DNA of 64,000 nt, from IMG/VR virus record IMGVR_UViG_3300001373_000069; one strand, given 5' to 3'. The first letter of the stretch is position 1. Each line of letters opens with the position of its first letter. A model generated the notes under the pieces. The model searched no databases. It had not been told where the DNA came from and saw only the letters and a list, made by a program, of their open reading frames with translations. The position numbers were made by a program, and so were the translations under genes. This stretch comes from a virus (taxonomy: Duplodnaviria; Heunggongvirae; Uroviricota; Caudoviricetes). This document shows, piece after piece, positions 1,338 to 34,456 of the stretch.

Positions 1338-1910
1338 TTATATCTTACCTTGTAATAACAAAGCCATTTTTGCATGAAAGGCCAATAGTTCATCGGCCTT
1401 TACATAATCCAGTTCCTCTCTAGGTAACTGAGACAAGCCATTACAGATAAGTTTACTTGAGGTCTCGTCGTAATCAAACGACGCTAAGATTAGATCTCCC
1501 TTCACAGGAAGGTTATTAAGATCTACGTTTTCTAGAAATATAGCACCAGTCAGAAAACAAGACTTTATAGTGTCAAATGGCACTGTAGGAGTATTATTTA
1601 GAATACCAACAATCTTCTCCAGCCCCTCAGGAGTGGTTACTCGTAGGGGAATCAATATTCTTGGGTATTCATCATCAATCACATTAGCTTCAGTTACAGA
1701 GTAACTAACTCTAACCATATACACACCAGGCTTTGTAACTAATTGGTAGTTACGTAGCAGTTTACTGTGGAAGATTGCACTGCTCATCTTTGTACTTTTT
1801 GGCCCATTCCTGGACAAACCATAACTGACCACATCCACCACCAATATCATCCTGACCAGCAGGGTTGAATACTCGAGTAGAATAACCGGCCGCAGCCATT
1901 TTGGGTGCAA
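1338..1910 (-). CDS. hypothetical protein; true start probably at an internal Met (~1787), because the 5' part overlaps the preceding radical-SAM gene in another frame
   Basis: ORF track; 150-nt overlap with 1762..2691. Confidence 0.4.
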   Translation of the reverse strand: MHPKWLRPVILLEYSTLLVRMILVVDVVSYGLSRNGPKSTKMSSAIFHSKLLRNYQLVTKPGVYMVRVSYSVTEANVIDDEYPRILIPLRVTTPEGLEKIVGILNNTPTVPFDTIKSCFLTGAIFLENVDLNNLPVKGDLILASFDYDETSSKLICNGLSQLPREELDYVKADELLAFHAKMALLLQGKI

Positions 1911-2691
1911 AATCTGTTACCAGAGTCAGCTTATCTTCGATAGCATTCTTCATTGATTGATCTTTCTCACAGATTACCGATAGAGTAACTTCCCAAATAC
2001 TGGGTTTGAAACACGCTAATAATCTGTTAACATCTAGATCGGTATTATTACCATCGTGCACACAGTAGTTAAAAAAAGGACGTCGTTTGGTAATGGAATT
2101 CCATAACTCTCCAACTCTACCTATTGTACACAAAGAATTAGTCCTGCTTGGTATTAGTTTATTACGCGCGATATCATAAGATTCATGGACAGAGAATTGT
2201 ATACCAATGGCTGGAATCAATTCTGATAATTTAATAAATCTACCAAAGATATTAGGACCAATACCGGTATTTATCTTTTCTGTTCCAAACGGTAATGTTG
2301 TACTTACCAGTAACTGAGCATTCTCGTAAAGAAGATTGAGATCCTGAATAGCATTTTCAAGTTCATCATAGTTTAGTAATGGTTCTCCCATTGACATGAA
2401 CATAATCTGAAACTTCTTTACACTACTTACATCTACACCAGTATAATCAACTGCATACTTAACTTGAGCAACAATCTCTTCGGCTGTTAGGTTACGAGTA
2501 AAGAATTTACCTGTACCACAGAATACACAACCAACCGGGCATCCACTCTGGGTGGAACAACAAATTACTGTGCGATCCTCGTATGTTGGATACTTGTACA
2601 AAACTGCTTCTGCAACAGCATCCTTTGATTCGAATACAAACTTAACTACATTCTCGTCACTACTTGGTATTGTTTTAATTGATTCAAACAT
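1762..2691 (-). CDS. RlmN/Cfr-family radical SAM RNA methyltransferase-like protein
   Basis: CxxxCxxC 'CSTQSGCPVGCVFCGTG' followed by 'NLTAEEIVAQV'; 'SMGEPLLN' and C-terminal 'DIGGGCGQL' match the RlmN/Cfr layout (CVSSQVGC..C.FC.TG / GMGEPL / DIDAACGQL). Confidence 0.7.
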   Translation of the reverse strand: MFESIKTIPSSDENVVKFVFESKDAVAEAVLYKYPTYEDRTVICCSTQSGCPVGCVFCGTGKFFTRNLTAEEIVAQVKYAVDYTGVDVSSVKKFQIMFMSMGEPLLNYDELENAIQDLNLLYENAQLLVSTTLPFGTEKINTGIGPNIFGRFIKLSELIPAIGIQFSVHESYDIARNKLIPSRTNSLCTIGRVGELWNSITKRRPFFNYCVHDGNNTDLDVNRLLACFKPSIWEVTLSVICEKDQSMKNAIEDKLTLVTDFAPKMAAAGYSTRVFNPAGQDDIGGGCGQLWFVQEWAKKYKDEQCNLPQ

Positions 2692-3033: not shown

Positions 3034-3180
3034 TTATCCATTTTTATTGTAAATAATAAGCTCTTTACGAGCGCGTGTCATAGCAACATATAGAGCTTGA
3101 AACCTTTGTTTCCACTCGATAGGCTTAACATCCATAATCTCACCTTCACAAACATACACGTTGTTTAAGGTCATTCCTTG
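3034..3180 (-). CDS. SF1 Dda/RecD-like helicase, 3' exon (motif V tail + motif VI)
   Basis: Minus frame from 3180: QGMTLNNVYVCEGEIMDVKPIEWKQRFQALYVAMTRARKELIIYNKNG*. Joined to exon 1 it gives ...YAYATSLYKA|QGMTLNNVYV (consensus TIHKAQGSTFDNVYV) and YVAMTRARKEL (motif VI). The base preceding the exon on the minus strand is G (omega-G). Confidence 0.7.
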   Translation of the reverse strand, partial: QGMTLNNVYVCEGEIMDVKPIEWKQRFQALYVAMTRARKELIIYNKNG

Positions 3181-4238
3181 CAGTTACCTTATACCTTTCA
3201 ATATAAGCCGGACTATCCCTTAATCTTTAAATTTCCAAAAATACCCAAATGCCTTAATAGTTTTACCATTACAGCATCTTATTATACCAGATTGTCTATT
3301 ACTAGGTAATCCAAGTTTAATAATTGCTAATGCAACAGTGTCGAAAGCCTCGACAAATCCATTTTCATCAGATTGAATCACTCCAGGATATTTAGACATA
3401 CCTTTATTAAAAGGTATTCTACCCTTAAGTCTACTCTTTTGTTCTTCTGTAAATAGTCTTCCACTACTAGCTTTAGATAATTTTAGTTTTGTATCTTTAC
3501 TATGCTTCTTACCTTTCATAGGATGTATAGCACCTGGTTTATTCAACCAGTGACCATTTAAACCAACAGACTCTCTCCAACTATCAATTTGATGCTCGGT
3601 ACGTTTTCTACCTAAAGCATTATTTGATAATTTTAACCTAACTATTGACTTATTGGATTCTGATAATCCTGAAAAGGTGTCACCGCCATCTCCTCCCATA
3701 GTCATATTAGTTAAAGAAAACCCCCACTGAATCAATTGACTGATCCAATATATTTCTAATTCATAAGCATCTTGTTTAGTTTCACAACTATCAAGTTCTT
3801 TTATTAGAGGTTCTAATCCTTTGCTTCTTAATGACTTAATCCAAGAGAGACGTTTATTCCATTTTCTAGTTTCTTTTTCAGCCTCATCCAAGTTCTTTAG
3901 ATGACCGTAAAGTCTTTTTGATAAAGACTTCTTAGTATACCCTACATATCTAACCTCATTAGATATAGGGTCTTCAAGTGTATAAATGTAATATGTTTCC
4001 ATAGTACTATTATAGTAAAAACTAGTTGCATAATCATAGATATAATAAAGATTCCCCCATTATAGTCTCTGAACCTTGAACTCTTTAAAGTTCCTTGGCT
4101 GCGGATTATCCAATTCAACATCTTGTTACCATACCATAATGATTAGTTATGCCGCGTATAGTTCGCACTATACGTTTGGTAATGTTGACTTAAGGAAGTC
4201 CCCGCAATTTAGAGGGTTTTATAAGGCCCATAGTATTA
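3181..4238 (-). other. Group I intron (approx. 1058 nt) interrupting the helicase gene, carrying a GIY-YIG HEG
   Basis: The 5' exon ends in U (..gct) followed by an in-frame stop. The intron's 3' terminal base is G. The intron contains a free-standing HEG ORF and GC-richer structured-looking flanks (4003..4235). Confidence 0.6.
3220..4002 (-). CDS. GIY-YIG homing endonuclease (intron-encoded)
   Basis: N-terminal 'YYIYTLEDPISNEVRYVGYTKKSLSKRLYGH' GIY-YIG motif. Confidence 0.85.
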   Translation of the reverse strand: METYYIYTLEDPISNEVRYVGYTKKSLSKRLYGHLKNLDEAEKETRKWNKRLSWIKSLRSKGLEPLIKELDSCETKQDAYELEIYWISQLIQWGFSLTNMTMGGDGGDTFSGLSESNKSIVRLKLSNNALGRKRTEHQIDSWRESVGLNGHWLNKPGAIHPMKGKKHSKDTKLKLSKASSGRLFTEEQKSRLKGRIPFNKGMSKYPGVIQSDENGFVEAFDTVALAIIKLGLPSNRQSGIIRCCNGKTIKAFGYFWKFKD

Positions 4239-5375
4239 AGCCTTGTACAGCGATGTAGCATAGGCATAATCAAACACAGCAAACGACTGTAAGAATTGAT
4301 TGTAGCGGCTCCATTGACCATATTCGGCGGCCTCCTTGTAACGTTGTCTACGAACTATCTCGTAAGCAGTCTGAGCTTCCTCTGTGTTCATCACGACTGG
4401 TATTCCGGTAGCTGTAGTTGGTACATTATCCAGGGCTAGATATGCACATGGTATACCAAAGGGACCTAACTGATAAGCTATCCCAGTAACTACCGAAATC
4501 TGACCATTATGGATTATAGGAGATCTGTTAACTGAAAATCCTCCTCGAGATATGATTATCTCATTTCTTTCGAATTGATGGGAGTTCTTTCCGTATATTC
4601 TCTCTCTTACCCCAGTATTTAAAAGCTCAATAGTCGAGTTCTTATAGGCTAGTATACGAGTATGATTCTTATCGTTACGATTACTAATTATATCATTAGC
4701 GGCCCGATCAACAGTACAATGAATATCATTCATAAATCTATAACCGGTATCACCTCTCATACAATCCTGTCTACCATACTCTTCTTCGAGAATATACTTA
4801 TTGAACGGTAGATCTTTATTGATGTTATCGATCTCTTGTCTAATCCTGACAGCTAATTCACCGATCGGTCCTTCGAATCGTTGCGAAGTAGTCAACTCAG
4901 CATCTATTCTATCAAATTCTTGTTTTACTGGAGGTAATTGAAATGGGTCGCCAACCACAATTAAGTGAATATCACGAATACTAACCTCGTGCAGAATTGC
5001 GTCAACCAGCGGATCATCTATCATTGATGCCTCATCTATCAAAAGAATCTCAGTACCATCAATTTTCATGTTACCGTTCTTATTTCTTTTAAATGAGATT
5101 TCTTCCGAGGAGTCGTCCATTTGCATGCCAAGTAGTTGTGCTATTGTAAAACTAGTTCCAATAGACTGCTTCAATACTTCTTTAGCAGAGTGTGCTATGG
5201 TTCCACCAACTACTTTCCTTTTCTCGTGCTGCAAAGCCTCTTTTAACATAAAAGTCTTACCACTACCAGGAGGCCCCGATAATACAAAGAACTCGTTTGC
5301 TTGAGCAGGTTTACTTAAGAAATCACGGATTCCTTCGGCAGCTACTTTCTGTTCCTGAGTTAATGTTGATATCAT
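4239..5375 (-). CDS. SF1 Dda/RecD-like DNA helicase, 5' exon
   Basis: Walker A 'GPPGSGKT', motif II 'LLIDEASMI', motif III 'VVGDPFQLPPV'; ORF stops abruptly inside motif V (..FDYAYATSLYKA*). Confidence 0.8.
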
Positions 5376-6445
5376 ACTAATACCATTTTACCTCCACTAT
5401 TAACACATAATTCATCAAGTTCTTTGTTTCTATTTGTGGAAACAGCAAACAAGCGAATATTAGACGGGAAATTAACTATACTCTCCAATCCATCTGTAAT
5501 AAAGATGACTGAATTACTATCATACTTCTTGATATGGTTGTACACGTTTTTCCACCCTTTAGCACTGAGTACCGGAGAAAATTTATAATTGACATACTCT
5601 TTTAGATCCTGTCTTGTATTTAACACAATCTCTTTAACTGGCATATTATTGAACTCCAATATGGTAACTTCAGTAACATCATCGATAAAAGAATCTAACA
5701 GGCTGAGTAGTACAGCTTTAACAATAGAAAAATACTTGGGATTAGTTGACGTAGACCAGGAAACATCCACCATAACCACAACACTGTTGTTCTGGTTCAT
5801 GATGACCTTAGATTCCCGTATGAAGGGTTTCTTCAAGGCTATGTCGGTCTTAAAGGAAGGTAAAGCAAACCTATACTTCCTAATCTTGTGAATGTCACTT
5901 AGTTTAGATAGTCTAGATACTTGAGATACTCTTGTGGGAAATAATTCACCGGCGACATGCTTCATACCATTGTAAAACTTAATGATATCAAGAAGTTCAT
6001 CGGTTAGAACCAGTTCGTTAGCAGGTATACTGGCATCGATCCCTAATAATTCAAGGTGTTCAGGGTTAATCGTAGATATATCATCTTTATAGTTCATCTG
6101 TCTAGATTCCATATCAATAAGAATGGGATTACCAGAAAGTCTACAATATTCTGCACTACGAAGGTTAACCTTAGGGGATATTAGTTTTAGTACGTTGATA
6201 GCAAACTCAATAGGATTATTGGTTTCTACAGAATCAGCATTAACCATATCCATAAGCTCAATAAGAGTTTCTGTGTACGGAGATGGTCTTCCCGTGGCAC
6301 CATAAGCATTCAACATCTTATAGATTCTTAGATAAGCCATGTCTGAAACAATACTAATCGGAATATATCCTTCATACCCCATTCTCTCTGCACTACGCAT
6401 AATATCATATGCAGTAACTATAAAGTTATGAGGAGCTTTCACCAT
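5372..6445 (-). CDS. von Willebrand factor A (vWA) domain protein, partner of MoxR-like ATPase
   Basis: MIDAS-like 'VVMVDVSWSTS'; overlaps and is co-oriented with the upstream AAA gene. Confidence 0.65.
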   Translation of the reverse strand: MVKAPHNFIVTAYDIMRSAERMGYEGYIPISIVSDMAYLRIYKMLNAYGATGRPSPYTETLIELMDMVNADSVETNNPIEFAINVLKLISPKVNLRSAEYCRLSGNPILIDMESRQMNYKDDISTINPEHLELLGIDASIPANELVLTDELLDIIKFYNGMKHVAGELFPTRVSQVSRLSKLSDIHKIRKYRFALPSFKTDIALKKPFIRESKVIMNQNNSVVVMVDVSWSTSTNPKYFSIVKAVLLSLLDSFIDDVTEVTILEFNNMPVKEIVLNTRQDLKEYVNYKFSPVLSAKGWKNVYNHIKKYDSNSVIFITDGLESIVNFPSNIRLFAVSTNRNKELDELCVNSGGKMVLV

Positions 6446-7547
6446 TGATTATAAAGAATAATTGAGACTCGACCTCACACCCAAGTTCACCTACAATTCT
6501 ATACCTTAGCGAATGTTCAAGTGTAGAACATCGGTTTATAAAGGTTAGTATCTCTGTAGTATTCTCTTGATGTTTAGAAGTAACCTCTGTTAGTTTGCTT
6601 ACAATGAAATTGATTTCAGCTAAGGCACTAGTAATAGCCCTAATGGTTGTAAGAGGTTTACTTTCCAAATTATCGGCCCATTTATTAGCTCGATCTAGTA
6701 CAGCTTTTATCCTGAATCTCTCTGTTACAAAAGAACAATACATTAAGACTTCAGTCATATCAGCAGTATCTAACCCATCAACATATTGAAGAACACGTAT
6801 ATCCTTATGAACATCAAGAAGATCAGAAGCATCCTTGATAACCCTTGGGGATACCAAATCAATAGTCCTGGCTGCAGTTTCTGCTAATACATCATAGAGA
6901 AGGCTCTGAGCATCTACTTGGTCTGGTTTAACCACCTTTAGGAAATCTAAATAAGCTTCATGAGAATAATGATCCCACATTACTTTAATTCTAATAGGGA
7001 ATCTTTCCTTATAAAAAGCAGCACTAGAATCATCAATACTGACATCTTCTGGGCTCTTGTTGGTGCATATAATAACAGAACTTATTAACGATTCGGTGAA
7101 CCTACCATTCTGTCTTAATCCGCCTTCGGTTAAGATATCCTTCAATGCAGCAGCAGTAGATGGTCTGGCATCCAGAAATTCTTCAAGAATCAATACTCCA
7201 GGACTACTAAATACACTACGATCAAACGCTGTTTCATATACAGAGGTTTCAGTCAATTTCTTGATGTTTGGTATACCAAGTAAAGCCTCGACTTCCATAT
7301 CTTCATAACCAACAATTGTTGGGGCTGGTATACTAACATAGTCAAGAAAAGCCTTTACAATTTGTGATTTACCAAATCCTCCTGGTCCATACAGTATAAC
7401 ATTCTTACCAGTTGTAGTACCGAGGTATAATGCCTCTATAACCTTGTTCATATTGTAGAAACGTTTACTAAGTGCTTCTTGAATAGATTGTAGTGAATGA
7501 GATAATATTGTCTCTCTTATCGATGTTACAACTTCTGTCCTGTTCAT
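6426..7547 (-). CDS. MoxR-like AAA+ ATPase
   Basis: Walker A 'LYGPGGFGKSQIV'; paired with downstream vWA gene. Confidence 0.65.
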   Translation of the reverse strand: MNRTEVVTSIRETILSHSLQSIQEALSKRFYNMNKVIEALYLGTTTGKNVILYGPGGFGKSQIVKAFLDYVSIPAPTIVGYEDMEVEALLGIPNIKKLTETSVYETAFDRSVFSSPGVLILEEFLDARPSTAAALKDILTEGGLRQNGRFTESLISSVIICTNKSPEDVSIDDSSAAFYKERFPIRIKVMWDHYSHEAYLDFLKVVKPDQVDAQSLLYDVLAETAARTIDLVSPRVIKDASDLLDVHKDIRVLQYVDGLDTADMTEVLMYCSFVTERFRIKAVLDRANKWADNLESKPLTTIRAITSALAEINFIVSKLTEVTSKHQENTTEILTFINRCSTLEHSLRYRIVGELGCEVESQLFFIINGESSS

Positions 7548-14574: not shown

Positions 14575-14783
14575 TTTGTTATCTTAAAGGCTCTTTATCC
14601 TTTAATTCTCATACTTTACCATAGTATGATGTTCGGACTATGTCATCACCCTAAACCAGGGTGTCGCGCGCTCGTGTCGTTTTACTGTCCGTTCTGGACT
14701 CCATACGTTAGTCTCTGCTCCTTCAATGCATTCCTGCAAAGCTTGGATCACGATTACCCTTCAAGGGAGGGCTTTCCGTGAGT

Positions 14784-15428
14784 TCACGCGATTTTAATGG
14801 GGCTTAGGATTTCATCGACTAAAGCCTTTTTTCTTTTTAAGTACCATGATGAATCAGAGTATAATAGACCAACCAGTAATTCAACATCAGTTTTTCTACG
14901 CACTCTAAGTACATATATTTTCCCCTGTTGTCTAACTGTTGAATGAATACCATAACTGTTAAAAAAGTCTTGTAGTGGTATTATTTCAGGTTCAGTAATA
15001 CACAAAGTCATATTCCAATATGGTTTTCCATCTGTAATTTGCTTTGAATAACAACCATCGCCATCTATATAACCCCTGATATAATGAATAAATAATTCTT
15101 CAGGTAAATCTAATAATACCGATTTTACACCAATATTAACTAAATCAGTATAAAGCTCTTTATTATAAGACCTCAATACTACCTTGTTATTAAATCGTTC
15201 CTCATTATTCCACACATAACTATCCTCGCTATATGATATATTAAAGAATGGAAATTCACTTTCAAATCGTTTAATAATTTCCTCATCTTTAATACTTAGT
15301 TTTAACTTACTACAACTGCTATATGCAATTTTAGAGTAATGCAAACTACCATCAGCATGAAAGAAACCTAGAAAATATGCTTTAGCTTCTGTGTCAATAT
15401 TCTTAAATTCATCATTATAAGATACCAT
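14784..15428 (-). CDS. LAGLIDADG homing endonuclease
   Basis: 'YFLGFFHADGS' and 'YIRGYIDGDGC' LAGLIDADG motifs. Confidence 0.85.
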   Translation of the reverse strand: MVSYNDEFKNIDTEAKAYFLGFFHADGSLHYSKIAYSSCSKLKLSIKDEEIIKRFESEFPFFNISYSEDSYVWNNEERFNNKVVLRSYNKELYTDLVNIGVKSVLLDLPEELFIHYIRGYIDGDGCYSKQITDGKPYWNMTLCITEPEIIPLQDFFNSYGIHSTVRQQGKIYVLRVRRKTDVELLVGLLYSDSSWYLKRKKALVDEILSPIKIA

Positions 15429-15790
15429 AACTATTTATTTGGATTAATTGTAAAATCGTACCAAATATATTATAGTTAGAAAAATTGATTGTGTTTACCC
15501 CATTTCCCCAAAGCATCTTTATTCGCACGCTTTGTAGAATACATTTTATTATTTATATAGGCTCTTTATCCTATACTTTCTACAATTTATCTTGTTATAG
15601 TTGTAGAGTAGACTATATCTTTAACTTGCAAACCGCAAGCAGTGTCCCGCTTTCGTGGAGAACTTTATAGCTTTGGCTTTACCCAGTAAGCGTCATCTCT
15701 AGTCGTTCGGCATTTACAATTATTTCTAACTGATTTAGCACGGGATTGTCCTCTTCAGGAGTTTCCCCGTTTAACGGAATTTATACTCAA

Positions 15791-16429
15791 CTATTCTATT
15801 AAATTACCTTCTTTGTTGTATACTACCCAATGAAATCCTTTACATGTTGTACTGTTGATAGAAGATCTGATAATATGTGATGCATGATTTAGTCCAAGAT
15901 CTCTGAAAGCTTGATATGGATTGTCATATGTATGCACTAAATTCCATTTAGAATCATATTTCTCGCACTTTCCATACTTACCAGTTCCTCTTCTATTTGT
16001 ATTACCAAGTTGTGCAGTTTTAGAAGATTCACTAATCTTTTTCCATACTTCTTGAGTATGTAAATGAGACTGATCTCTTAATTTTGCTTTAGCAGACATT
16101 TTGGCTTTAGTGGATTTACCAAACCTAAACCCAGTAGTTCCCAGACCAGGATAATCAGCATTATAACCATTACTAACGGTATCTAACAAATTAACCCAAT
16201 AGTACTCCATTTGTAAACAATATTCTGGGGGATAAGTCTCGAGAATCTCAAATCTAAATGATTCCTCTCCGTACTTGTTCCAAGAACGTTGTAAATGATC
16301 ATTATAATGAGTATTTGATCGTAATTTACGTCTGTGATCTGACCATCTAGAACTAAAATATCGTTGAGCTGACCCTACGTACATTTTTCCATTAACAGTA
16401 TTTGTGATAGTATATACACCTGATTTCAT
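15791..16429 (-). CDS. GIY-YIG homing endonuclease
   Basis: 'SGVYTITNTVNGKMYVGSAQRYFSSRWSDHRR'. Confidence 0.85.
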   Translation of the reverse strand: MKSGVYTITNTVNGKMYVGSAQRYFSSRWSDHRRKLRSNTHYNDHLQRSWNKYGEESFRFEILETYPPEYCLQMEYYWVNLLDTVSNGYNADYPGLGTTGFRFGKSTKAKMSAKAKLRDQSHLHTQEVWKKISESSKTAQLGNTNRRGTGKYGKCEKYDSKWNLVHTYDNPYQAFRDLGLNHASHIIRSSINSTTCKGFHWVVYNKEGNLIE

Positions 16430-16951: not shown

Positions 16952-17371
16952 TTACTTATAGATTTGGTGAATCGCATCAACGATATCCTTTGCTGGTTTT
17001 AATCCGATACCCAAGAGCTCTTTAACGTTTTTTACAGCCATTAATTTCGTATCTTTTAGATCTCGTACCATATACACCAGTTCATCATTCTCCAAAGCAT
17101 CATTGATTACCTTGGCATACTCTTTGGTTACATCTCCACCTTCTTTAGTATCTGAGTTCGCTATAAGAGAAGCCATAAAGTCATCATTACACTGATTATG
17201 TGTTGGGTAAGTAGCAAACTCCGGATAGAATGAATGCACAGTATGTGGTTCTCCTTTGGGAATAATACTATTACAGTGAGAACAATATTTATTACTACGA
17301 GCCTTGGTACCAACACTCCGAGACTCGTAGTAATCATCTTTTAATAAATAGGCGTGTTTCTTTACCATCAC
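16952..17371 (-). CDS. hypothetical protein with C-terminal segment resembling ribosomal L7/L12 CTD
   Basis: 'MAVKNVKELLGIGLKPAKDIVDAI' vs L7/L12 'VKEALGLGLKEAKDLVE'; N-terminal Cys/His-rich. Confidence 0.4.
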   Translation of the reverse strand: MMVKKHAYLLKDDYYESRSVGTKARSNKYCSHCNSIIPKGEPHTVHSFYPEFATYPTHNQCNDDFMASLIANSDTKEGGDVTKEYAKVINDALENDELVYMVRDLKDTKLMAVKNVKELLGIGLKPAKDIVDAIHQIYK

Positions 17372-18789: not shown

Positions 18790-19019
18790 TTTTTTGCCTT
18801 TTTAATTAAATTATTAAATACTTCTAAGGTATCAGCTAAGCAATCAATTCTTATCTTGGCACCTGTTATCTCAATACGCTTTGCATTTCCAAGTCTATTA
18901 GCACCTTTTATAGCTAATTCAGCCTGCGATAAAGTAAAGACAACTCCTTTACAAGAAGCTGTTTCCGATAACTCATCGTACTCTACAGGAAACCCATTAA
19001 ATGTACCTATCACCATCAT
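18777..19019 (-). CDS. hypothetical protein (80 aa)
   Basis: ORF track. Confidence 0.4.
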   Translation of the reverse strand: MMVIGTFNGFPVEYDELSETASCKGVVFTLSQAELAIKGANRLGNAKRIEITGAKIRIDCLADTLEVFNNLIKKAKKCQK

Positions 19020-31318: not shown

Positions 31319-31463
31319 ATGTACTAGAGGGACTTGAACCCCCGACCCCGCCCTCCCAGGCACGTATACTGTCAGTCTAGTCTCTTGTACTTCAAGACTT
31401 CAAACAACTTATCGTCGACGGTGGTGTTTTAACCACTACTCTAACCAACTGAGCTATAGTACA
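31319..31463 (-). ncRNA. tRNA-like element (145 nt): tRNA-Ile paralogue with ~65-nt insertion between anticodon arm and T-arm, and a non-canonical (6- or 8-nt) anticodon loop
   Basis: Perfect 7-bp acceptor TGTACTA/TAGTACA. D-arm is TAGCTCAGTTGGTTAGAGT. The 24-nt T-arm segment gagggacttgaacccccgaccccg is identical to tRNA-Ile at 36038..36061. Anticodon region is GTGGT-TAAAAC-ACCAC, followed by CGTCGACGATAAG..GGGAGGGC before the T stem. Confidence 0.55.
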
Positions 31464-32607: not shown

Positions 32608-32709
32608 TTTATATTTGTATTAAATGGTTTCAAGGGAGAAAGGTATCGAGACTCATTTCCGCGACGGTCTCTGTTGGATATCTCCGCTTTCGTATAATAC
32701 CTTTCTTTG

Positions 32710-32781
32710 TGGGGATGATGGGATTCGAACCCAAGCCTCCGAGCTTTTAGACCCGGTATTCAACCGCCGAACTGCGCCCCC
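32710..32781 (-). tRNA. tRNA-like gene (72 nt) with apparent 8-nt anticodon loop UCUAAAAG (contains CUA/UAA triplets); anticodon undetermined
   Basis: Acceptor GGGGGCG/CATCCCC (one mismatch), D-arm GTTC-GGCGGTT-GAAT, anticodon stem CCGGG/CTCGG, T-arm TGGGTTCGAATCCCA. Confidence 0.5.
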
Positions 32782-33380: not shown

Positions 33381-34456
33381 AAACGTCTGATTATTAATTA
33401 CTTAGTGGAGATGGCGGGAATCGCCTTAAAAAATAATTTCGCACAGTTCCATATTTATTATTATAATGCTATTATACATTATAAAACATAAAGATATGAA
33501 AACAATTAATTGTACATGTAACTACTGTAATAAATCTGATGAAGAACACATTAACACATAACCAAACAGTAGAATTTTTACAAGAAATAGCAAAATTAAT
33601 AAATACTTAACTTTCGTTAAGGGTTGGACTATATCATCACCCGTTCTGGGTGTCGGATGCTCTAGGCTCACCTTAGTGTCCTTAGTCTCTGAACCTTCCT
33701 CATTCTTCCATGAGGCTCGGCTGCTGATTGACATGTAAATTAAATAGCGTTCAGTATGTACTGCTTCACTTTAATGGGCTCTACATAGTCCCAACTATTT
33801 AATTTATTTAGCTTTCCAGCAATTCTTCCAATTATTTAACTGAGTATTCCTACTCAGTGGGTCCGATTCCTTTTAAACCCGCGTCCAAACATCCGGTAAT
33901 ATTAGTGCTACTTACGTGCGTAGCTGGAATGACGTCCAGCACCTAGGACCAACTGTTTACAGCTGGAGCTCCACCACCTTATTTTGAGAAAACAAGGAAA
34001 ACAACTTGCTGATTTTCTGTTTCTAGGATCACAGCTACCCAATCGCCATATTAAGCTGCAAGAGCCGTAGCGAAAGACATTACGCGAACGTTGTCCTCTA
34101 TAGTTCGATGGACTACCATCATCTTGCACGGACTAATACCCACTGACAATGCTGTCAAAACCAGTCATCCCCGATTATTATTTCATTCGATATAATCCAT
34201 AACAGAGCCACATAATAACTGAAAATTCAACATCTTTTGTTGTAATTAATTCAACGATAGTTATTAGTGTAATACAGAACATAGCAGGATGTTTTATGAA
34301 TACTTCTTTCATTCGATATCAATTTGAATAAACGACATTGTTAGAAAAGATACACCAGTACAAAATGCAATGACTTTGATTGGTTCAGTAGAGGGATATA
34401 GATCAGGGTGCATAATAGAGAATGCTATGAAAAGCATACCCACAACAATACCCCAT

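Follow-up and report, generated by a model that had tools for sequence, protein, structure and literature searches.

A radical-SAM gene of the RlmN/Cfr superfamily in a tailed phage, lacking the N-terminal domain and recurrently linked in its relatives to NAD+ salvage genes

A radical S-adenosylmethionine (SAM) gene was analysed at positions 1762 to 2691, on the minus strand, of a 64,000-nucleotide stretch of phage DNA (IMG/VR record IMGVR_UViG_3300001373_000069, Caudoviricetes), the whole of which is referred to below as the window. The gene is the stand-alone catalytic core of a radical-SAM (rSAM) methyl synthase of the RlmN/Cfr type without the N-terminal domain of those enzymes. The branch of the RlmN/Cfr superfamily to which it belongs is distinct, widespread and of uncharacterised function, and databases label many of its members RlmN. 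The gene is mobile, and among its relatives it is recurrently linked, and once fused, to enzymes of nicotinamide adenine dinucleotide (NAD+) and ADP-ribose metabolism. Taken together, these observations are best explained, with slightly less than even confidence, by an RlmN/Cfr-type core that acts on a non-canonical substrate tied to NAD+ or ADP-ribose; the canonical targets, 23S rRNA A2503 and tRNA A37, are considered less likely.

A preliminary description made from the sequence had placed a phage-encoded RlmN/Cfr-family RNA methyltransferase at this site. The open reading frame (ORF) and the motifs quoted for it were found as described, and the strand, which had been left unstated, is minus. 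The phage origin was likewise borne out, given that the window is part of a large tailed phage and encodes a Dda-like helicase, an exonuclease, rIIA/rIIB, a sigma factor and the terminase large subunit. The GC content of the window is 34-42%. No near-identical DNA was found among sequenced phages; the phage is only distantly related to isolates, and its nearest relative is a 175-kb IMG/VR contig with a terminase 84% identical and an rSAM protein 64% identical. A large protein database contains a protein identical to the window protein, along with over 7,400 homologues (E <= 1e-5). The gene and its principal codons are listed below; conservation here and throughout is given over 88 lineages, into which 156 loci were grouped at 80% rSAM identity.

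1762..2691, minus strand: RlmN/Cfr-like radical-SAM gene, a "mini-RlmN" of 309 amino acids (aa) without the N-terminal domain (ORF listing, ATG start)
2518..2562, minus strand: codons C44 to C58, comprising C44 and the CX3CX2C [4Fe-4S] motif C51/C55/C58 (alignment to E. coli RlmN)
2380..2391, minus strand: codons M101-G-E-P104, the GEP motif common to RlmN and Cfr (alignment to E. coli G179-E180)
2062..2064, minus strand: codon C210 ("NYCVH"), a family-specific invariant cysteine (88/88 lineages)
1969..1971, minus strand: codon C241 ("SVICE"), a second family-specific invariant cysteine (88/88 lineages)
1819..1869, minus strand: codons F275-W291, FNPAGQDDIGGGCGQLW, with C287, equivalent to the methyl-carrying cysteine C355 of RlmN (E. 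coli alignment)

In the translation, ICCSTQSGCPVGCVFCGTGKFF supplies the CX3CX2C motif (C51, C55, C58) with extra cysteines at 44 and 45, and the motif string ICCSTQSGCPVGCVFCGTG of the 309-aa protein carries the same cluster cysteines with C44 and C45 ahead of them. The string "FMSMGEPLLN" corresponds to residues 98-107, and "DIGGGCGQLW" contains C287.

Placement relative to RlmN and Cfr

Only the generic Radical_SAM model (PF04055) matched in Pfam, at 29.0 bits against a gathering score of 29.5 bits (E = 1.4e-6). The same model is precomputed on most homologues of the protein, and the CX3CX2C motif together with the alternating strands and helices of the structural model places the protein in the radical SAM superfamily (PF04055). 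The top NCBIfam match was RlmN (TIGR00048) at E = 3e-25, with 88.9 bits against a 290-bit cut-off and covering only model positions 74-342 of 355; PRK11194 (RlmN) gave 60 bits against 633. The Cfr models (TIGR04432, NF000424, PRK14453) ranked just behind RlmN at E = 3.5e-20 to 2e-18, scoring 72.6, 66.7 and 68.4 bits against cut-offs of 530, 550 and 468. Searches of PDB sequences with the protein and with a family profile returned RlmN and Cfr chains only (window protein to RlmN 6fz6, E = 5e-18; family profile to RlmN, 1e-29, and to Cfr 9p0p, 7e-27).

A structural model was generated with AlphaFold2 from 35 homologues (predicted local distance difference test 86, predicted template modelling (TM) score 0.87) and compared with PDB structures using Foldseek. 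The best matches were eight RlmN chains (E = 1e-13 to 1e-14, TM 0.66-0.70), followed by the next radical-SAM protein at 1.6e-4, so that the RlmN-type fold is the closest structure. Other radical-SAM folds were weaker than RlmN by about 10 orders of magnitude, and QueE, the PflA/NrdG activases, KamA and the SPASM maturases gave only marginal profile matches (E >= 1e-4); these families were rejected. RlmN/Cfr is the nearest known family of the window protein, and placement in QueE, PflA or NrdG, which had been named beforehand as the contrary outcome, is excluded because the profile, PDB and fold searches all point to RlmN/Cfr. The earlier family call is thus upheld at the level of the superfamily, by profile, PDB sequence and nearest fold, and not as RlmN or Cfr proper, given the cut-offs, the N-terminal domain and the trees.

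The N-terminal helical domain, which comprises roughly 60 residues in E. coli RlmN, is absent from the window protein. Only 2-3 residues precede the equivalent of E. coli residue 63 in the window protein, compared to 51-77 in RlmN, and across the family 0-21 residues stand ahead of the core (the higher values probably reflecting over-extended ORF starts), compared to the 41-77 that form the N-terminal domain in RlmN/Cfr. With either RlmN or Cfr the identity is 25-26%, lower than the 37% that the two enzymes have in common. The phylogeny suggested in the preliminary description was calculated and put the protein in neither clade: a neighbour-joining tree grouped RlmN and Cfr together at 100% bootstrap with the window clade outside, and in a 55-sequence tree the smallest clade with the core family excluded every canonical RlmN/Cfr in 100/100 bootstraps. 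On these comparisons the clade can be regarded with very high confidence as distinct from both enzymes. Kaminska et al. (PMC2836569) had already pointed in 2010 to members in viruses and to a third, small subfamily whose function was unknown.

The catalytic positions were examined by alignment with E. coli RlmN (from MG1655), three Cfr variants and other RlmN sequences, which gave the following equivalences (window protein, then E. coli RlmN):

E28: E105
C44: C118
C51/C55/C58: C125/C129/C132
G102-E103: G179-E180
C287: C355

All aligned catalytic positions are conserved in 86-88 of the 88 lineages (C44 in 86; C51/C55/C58 in 86-87; G, E and P of GEP in 86-87; C287 in 88), and the F275-W291 segment is nearly invariant across the family. 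The second catalytic cysteine and the RlmN/Cfr arrangement noted earlier were confirmed, with C44 aligning to C118 and C287 to C355; a failure of these two extra cysteines to align, which had been named as an outcome that would count against the family call, did not occur. The GEP motif probably takes part in SAM binding. C210 and C241 are present in 88/88 lineages without a counterpart in the RlmN/Cfr sequences aligned here: in the profile alignment E. coli RlmN reads "EYVM" at the position of C210, and "SVICE" (C241) occupies the place of the E. coli "LIPWNP".

In RlmN and Cfr, a methyl group is first put on C355; a 5'-deoxyadenosyl radical then activates it for addition to a carbon of the adenine ring, and C118 resolves the adduct. 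Because the whole catalytic set is conserved, RlmN/Cfr-type C-methylation chemistry is highly probable for the window protein, which most likely C-methylates an adenine. By analogy, one SAM would methylate C287, and a second SAM would be cleaved at the C51/C55/C58 [4Fe-4S] cluster, yielding a 5'-deoxyadenosyl radical that would take a hydrogen from the S-methyl group. The resulting methylene radical would add to an sp2 carbon of the adenine ring (C2 or C8), and C44 would then resolve the covalent enzyme-substrate adduct so that a C-methyl group remains. A search of the literature for residues that separate C2 from C8 regiochemistry returned nothing usable.

C118 and/or C355 are missing from several further RlmN-like clades of phages, which cannot share this chemistry because the cysteines of the mechanism are gone. 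Among them are the clades of Pectobacterium phage Arno162, the crAss-like Kehishuvirus, Moorella phage MTATph1, Bacteroides phage Versailles and Pseudomonas phage D6. Going by the alignment, the window clade appears to be the phage RlmN-like one that keeps both cysteines and hence the chemistry. The clades that have lost C118 and/or C355 lack the N-terminal domain as well, and are represented by L095-L099, P0144, P0153, P0164, P0168, P0173, P0206 and P0223 (the handles are those given to sequences and loci in this analysis).

Distribution and NAD+ gene neighbourhoods

Phages and prophages are the main carriers of the clade, which is also found on Saccharibacteria chromosomes; the closest homologues come from these three sources and all have the short form. 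The best 120 of the more than 7,400 homologues are mostly 291-340 aa long, with a few longer fusions or extensions, and are 57-100% identical to the window protein. Representatives at 50% identity formed 74 clusters at E <= 1e-30 and 1,420 at E <= 1e-10, at which threshold RlmN/Cfr is reached. A relative is encoded on 288 IMG/VR contigs, while the contig index has no entry for the window protein itself. Relatives with 47-53% identity are present in 13 deposited phage records (Salmonella phage Arash, Stenotrophomonas phages ANB28 and BUCTxx99, Xanthomonas phage JGB6, Aeromonas phage Ahp1, seven Vibrio phages and the uncultured 462-kb LR756500). A common variant lies in a temperate gut prophage (RecT, ParB, Terminase_3, SPP1 portal) within a 420-kb scaffold. 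Only 79 of 185,579 species-representative genomes carry the family, and these are scattered over Bacteroidales, Clostridia, Bacilli, Actinomycetes, Proteobacteria, Saccharibacteria, Planctomycetes and archaeal bins. This is the distribution pattern of a mobile element. No obligate partner gene is shared, and five phage backbones have only the rSAM gene in common.

Many relatives are automatically named "23S rRNA (adenine2503-C2)-methyltransferase" in databases. The homologues in OR529408.1 (BUCTxx99) and OQ436456.1 (JGB6) are labelled "prohibitin family protein", which looks like a mis-annotation, and the labels in other records are hypothetical, "radical SAM protein, partial" and "ribosomal RNA large subunit methyltransferase N". 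On the evidence given here, relatives labelled RlmN or prohibitin are neither RlmN nor Cfr.

Gene neighbourhoods were compared by clustering all ORFs in flanks of 6-10 kb around the 156 loci. The apparent top "neighbours" of a first clustering were antisense ORFs inside the rSAM gene itself and were discarded. The most recurrent neighbours were all NAD+ genes, their identities confirmed using Pfam and NCBIfam: nicotinamidase-type isochorismatase (PncA), NUDIX, NAMPT, ribose-phosphate pyrophosphokinase-like (Prs-like), NMNAT-type cytidylyltransferase, NAD synthase (NadE) and NAPRTase (PncB). At least one such gene was present in the flank of 24 of the 88 lineages, in 19 different local backbones and interspersed over the rSAM tree, and in 15 lineages it was located within 300 bp of the rSAM gene. 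The family assignment in the preliminary description held at superfamily level, as set out above; this recurrent linkage, and the fusion, had been missed.

Several loci are arranged compactly. In L071 the order is Prs-like, rSAM, NAMPT-like on one strand, with the first two genes overlapping by 4 nt, and in Vibrio phage 496E54-1 it is Prs-like, NAMPT-family, rSAM. P0128, which was found on 2 contigs, is an rSAM domain fused to a C-terminal NUDIX domain; 2 nt separate its gene from a downstream NAPRTase-family gene, an NMNAT gene comes next, and a YffH/AdpP-type ADP-ribose diphosphatase gene is located upstream. This operon, of the NAMPT-NMNAT type, is that of L188. The wider group has a second nucleotide-related fusion. 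A single further sequence, P0221 (759 aa, on a JGI/Logan contig of 8,950 bp), comes from a sister clade that lacks the N-terminal domain and keeps both cysteines; it is fused to HD and HD_assoc domains, that is, to a dGTPase/SAMHD1-like phosphohydrolase. Two loci from Saccharibacteria metagenome-assembled genomes (L106 and L111) are cellular, with FtsX, FKBP, methionyl-tRNA synthetase, TatD and inositol monophosphatase in the flanks. Both show the conserved order metG - Nudix - pncB - pncA and then rSAM, and in L106 the rSAM gene stands between pncA and an NrtR-like (2e-36)/nadE pair.

The window itself contains a NAD+ salvage module, identified with tblastn and Pfam except where noted, which is a possible functional partner of the rSAM gene:

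18997..22447, minus strand: NAD+ salvage module, whole
21719..22447, minus strand: NAMPT part 1 (NAMPT_N and the start of NAPRTase)
21045..21674, minus strand: NAMPT part 2 (the rest of NAPRTase)
19945..21048, minus strand: NMNAT-domain protein
19524..19970, minus strand: 148-aa ORF of the module (ORF)
18997..19527, minus strand: NUDIX hydrolase

The two NAMPT parts are in different frames and separated by a 44-nt gap in which no intron was detected; a frameshift, a pseudogene or a sequencing error is possible.

For comparison, NAMPT-like genes are found in 4.0% of phage records (2,009 records), and NARP1 and NARP2, two NAD+ reconstitution pathways, have together been reported in 5.4% of sequenced phages (bioRxiv 10.1101/2024.02.11.579819). 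The 24 of 88 lineages with a NAD+ gene within 6-10 kb, and the concentration at less than 300 bp, represent a large excess over these whole-genome baselines, although the binomial comparison is rough and takes no account of how related the lineages are or of the fact that large phages are enriched in NAD+ genes. In the literature examined on NARP there was no mention of radical SAM or RlmN, and no link between radical SAM and NAD+ counter-defence was found either; searches on viral rlmN/K06941 and on RlmN with phage returned no paper on the function of the clade or on its NAD+ linkage. As far as these searches reached, the linkage is undescribed.

Candidate substrates and alternative explanations

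If the neighbourhoods reflect function, the enzyme would act as an accessory to phage NAD+ salvage and reconstitution modules, and the candidate substrates would be NAD+ or ADP-ribose themselves, an immune signal that contains adenine or derives from ADP-ribose, or a nucleic-acid end linked to NAD. The chances that the clade has a real functional link to NAD+/ADP-ribose metabolism are judged to be about evenly balanced. A small-molecule substrate is doubtful, with roughly twice as much weight against it as for it. It is similarly unlikely, while deserving serious attention, that the clade moved RlmN/Cfr chemistry from RNA to NAD+, ADP-ribose, or an ADP-ribose-derived or oligoadenylate signal; the enzyme would then be a so far unrecognised third component in two settings, the modules for NAD+ reconstitution or counter-defence in phages and an NrtR-controlled salvage locus in Saccharibacteria, a role that is to be held equally tentatively.

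A number of points weigh against a NAD+/ADP-ribose-tied substrate. Joint function with the NAD+ modules, which may be supposed from gene order, is the weakest step in this explanation, because most lineages have no NAD+ neighbour (64 of 88 have no NAD+ gene in the fetched flanks), because phage accessory and counter-defence genes cluster for reasons besides a shared pathway, because the known relatives act on RNA, and because the partner of the rSAM gene in gut prophages, by fusion or adjacency, is instead a gene for a 153-aa protein with weak ASCH/PUA-like similarity. To our knowledge all characterised enzymes of the superfamily have RNA as their substrate, and none a nucleotide cofactor. RlmN-type enzymes are also slow and spend two SAM on each turnover, a better fit for a rare target than for a bulk metabolite. 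In L106 the rSAM gene is on the strand opposite to its NAD+ neighbours, so that there is no co-transcription at that locus, and the NAD+ module of the window, while on the same strand as the rSAM gene, is 16-19 kb away and not adjacent. Control loci for two other genes of the window numbered 0 and 8, too few for a matched comparison, and lineages separated at 80% identity cannot be counted as wholly independent events in evolution. The acidity of the family (median isoelectric point (pI) 5.8, net charge -4; window protein pI 5.1, charge -7) compared to full-length RlmN/Cfr at pI 6.3-8.9 speaks against a canonical RNA target, but the contrast is only suggestive given that E. coli RlmN itself has a pI of 6.6.

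The 153-aa gene, which is conserved, follows the rSAM gene, for example at 10885-11343 of L005 (also P0013, P0276 and P0281-P0283), and the two are fused into proteins of 438-439 aa in at least six distinct sequences. Assignment of the partner as an ASCH/PUA domain was rejected, with matches from single members below threshold (E = 0.059 and 0.007) and no PDB sequence match. The similarity, if real, would point to a nucleic-acid substrate.

Among the alternatives, the one that survives best is that the protein is a functional equivalent of RlmN, forming 2-methyladenosine (m2A) at 23S A2503 and/or at A37 of host or phage tRNA and supplementing or replacing the host RlmN during infection or lysogeny. 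This is unlikely, at perhaps one chance in a handful. RlmN is the best family and fold and all of its catalytic residues are kept; an identity of 45-63% over elements from many phyla fits a universal rRNA or tRNA target, and relatives already bear the name of the 23S rRNA enzyme. Against this stand the 88.9 bits where RlmN requires 290, the missing N-terminal domain, the position of the clade outside RlmN and Cfr, and the acidity of the protein. RlmN reads the backbone of the tRNA D-arm and the 3' end, an isolated anticodon stem-loop is not a substrate, and U38 is critical (Fitzsimmons and Fujimori, PMC5130265). In Cfr, the N-terminal-domain mutations R25A and Q28A reduce resistance (Kaminska et al., PMC2836569). 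Contacts beyond the anticodon stem-loop are thus needed by RlmN, and loss of the N-terminal domain is difficult to reconcile with an equivalent function. Such a function would also be redundant because RlmN is widespread in bacteria (Kaminska et al., PMC2836569), and it leaves the NAD+ gene linkage and the Nudix fusion unexplained.

The tRNA genes bear on the same alternative. The preliminary description had counted about 17 in the window and had proposed that the enzyme may modify the phage's own tRNAs. ARAGORN predicted 15 and Rfam 16, short of that count, all at 31-43 kb and 62-64 kb and at least 29 kb from the rSAM gene. None of the 15 predicted tRNAs has the RlmN signature of A37 followed by a pyrimidine at 38: tRNA-Glu has A37-G38, tRNA-His has G37, and the other A37 tRNAs read ANN or UNN codons. 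tRNAs for such codons normally carry t6A or i6A derivatives at A37. Over the family, a tRNA gene was present in the fetched flanks (about 10 kb) at 11 of 84 loci and absent at 73, and physical linkage to tRNA genes was rejected as a family property, even though the gene lies among tRNA genes in Stenotrophomonas phage ANB28. Modification of the phage's own tRNAs is not supported by these results, nor by the occurrence of the family in temperate prophages and on Saccharibacteria chromosomes. As separate observations on the tRNA set, the Rfam tRNA at 31319-31463 (minus strand) spans 145 nt, scores 37.6 bits, is absent from the ARAGORN predictions and may hold an insertion or intron, and ARAGORN reported an odd tRNA with a two-base anticodon at 32709-32781.

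A different nucleic-acid target is improbable, be it a further site in RNA, the 5' end of an NAD-capped RNA or a nucleic acid that carries ADP-ribose; the NAD+ neighbourhood would then result from shared counter-defence or accessory islands, or from a link through RNA and not through the free cofactor. The superfamily acts on RNA, some of the Nudix partners are generic and weakly similar to RNA pyrophosphohydrolase and Nudt16, the gut-prophage fusion partner is weakly ASCH/PUA-like, and homologues occur in early or accessory regions with RNA ligase and phosphoesterase genes. However, the ASCH and decapping-type similarities are all below threshold, the lost N-terminal domain was not replaced by an RNA-binding domain, the protein is acidic, and the variable insert at residues 133-160 is not conserved.

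Methylation of an adenine carbon in phage DNA as protection against restriction is more improbable still. The gene is stand-alone and horizontally mobile, and in gut prophages it lies in a replication/ParB-like region just upstream of packaging genes, a position in which orphan DNA methyltransferases are often found. We know of no C2- or C8-methyladenine in DNA, though, and the protein has no DNA-binding domain, no DNA-modification genes recur among the neighbours, and the chromosomal Saccharibacteria copies within a NAD+ locus do not fit. Least probable is a Cfr-like role, in which 8-methyladenosine (m8A) at 23S A2503 would shield the ribosomes of the infected or lysogenic cell from peptidyl-transferase-centre antibiotics: the Cfr models score close to RlmN, the family profile matches Cfr 9p0p at 7e-27 and the family is as mobile as cfr, yet the 66.7-72.6 bits fall far below cut-offs of 468-550, the protein is outside the Cfr clade and without the domain whose mutation lowers Cfr-mediated resistance, and C8 and C2 regiochemistry are indistinguishable from the results here.

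The consequences differ with the target. With the ribosome or tRNA as target, a conserved translation site would be reprogrammed by phages and prophages in many phyla, and a Cfr-like enzyme would bear on the antibiotic resistance that gut prophages carry. With a functional NAD+ link, a radical-SAM step would join the phage NAD+ reconstitution pathways, a very active field. A NAD+/ADP-ribose substrate, if true, would be the first small-molecule substrate for the RlmN/Cfr class and a new kind of step in the contest over NAD+ between phages and their bacterial hosts.

Other features of the window and comparison with known systems

The phage is unusually rich in introns and homing endonucleases. 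A Dda-like helicase gene on the minus strand is split into an N-terminal part at 4236..5375 and a 46-aa C-terminal piece at 3034..3174, the pieces being parted by a group I intron (Rfam RF00028, 4022-4248, 52 bits) that carries a GIY-YIG homing-endonuclease ORF (3220..4002). Three further group I introns on the minus strand (14608-14867, 15580-15842 and 33605-33884; 56, 54 and 76 bits) reach the Rfam gathering score, and a LAGLIDADG ORF (14784..15428) and a GIY-YIG ORF (15791..16429) are located beside the introns at 14608-14867 and 15580-15842. Directly upstream of the helicase, a vWA-domain protein (5372..6445, minus strand; just under the Pfam cut-offs) overlaps an ATPase-like protein (6426..7547), and the two look like a paired module.

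The minus strand at 49859-49997 matches the Hatchet self-cleaving ribozyme (RF02678) over its full length (77 bits, gathering score 51, E = 3.5e-14). The region 23297-24883 (minus strand) encodes a protein of 528 aa that has the domains DUF2828 and DUF7788 and matches phrog_850, "RNA-binding protein", at E = 8.5e-60; its gene adjoins the NAD+ module and is upstream of the tRNA region. A 139-aa ORF at 16952-17371 (minus strand) gave a marginal match to the ribosomal L7/L12 C-terminal domain (25.6 vs 25.9 bits, E = 1.6e-5).

Of the known systems, RlmN (TIGR00048; PDB 3RFA, 5HR7, 6FZ6), the dual-specificity radical-SAM methyl synthase that forms 23S rRNA m2A2503 and tRNA m2A37, shares with the window protein its fold (Foldseek E = 1e-14, TM 0.70), the cluster, GEP, E105, C118 and C355. 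The window clade differs in being about 25% identical, in lacking the N-terminal domain, in its acidity, in having "SVICE" for "LIPWNP" and in the extra C210 and C241; whereas RlmN is vertically inherited, the family is mobile and sporadic and has a different gene neighbourhood. Cfr (23S rRNA m8A2503; resistance to phenicols, lincosamides, oxazolidinones, pleuromutilins and streptogramin A (PhLOPSA); TIGR04432, NF000424; PDB 9P0P) has the same catalytic set, fold family and spread on mobile elements. Unlike Cfr, to which it is about 26% identical, the window protein lacks the N-terminal domain and falls outside the RlmN and Cfr clade. Two viral structural relatives in BFVD, both uncharacterised, are short proteins encoded by phages and have an RlmN-like fold (Foldseek E = 6e-18 and 5e-14).

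The NAD+ systems NARP1 (Adps and Namat), NARP2 (NAMPT and NMNAT/Nudix) and the Preiss-Handler-type sets (PncA, PncB, NadE) are those with which the rSAM gene shares a neighbourhood in 24/88 lineages; the Prs-like and NAMPT-like neighbours may be Adps and Namat or ordinary Prs and NadV. None of the NARP enzymes is a homologue of the rSAM protein, and most NAD+ modules lack it: 13 phage records carry a relative (at least 47% identity), compared to 2,009 with NAMPT-like genes.

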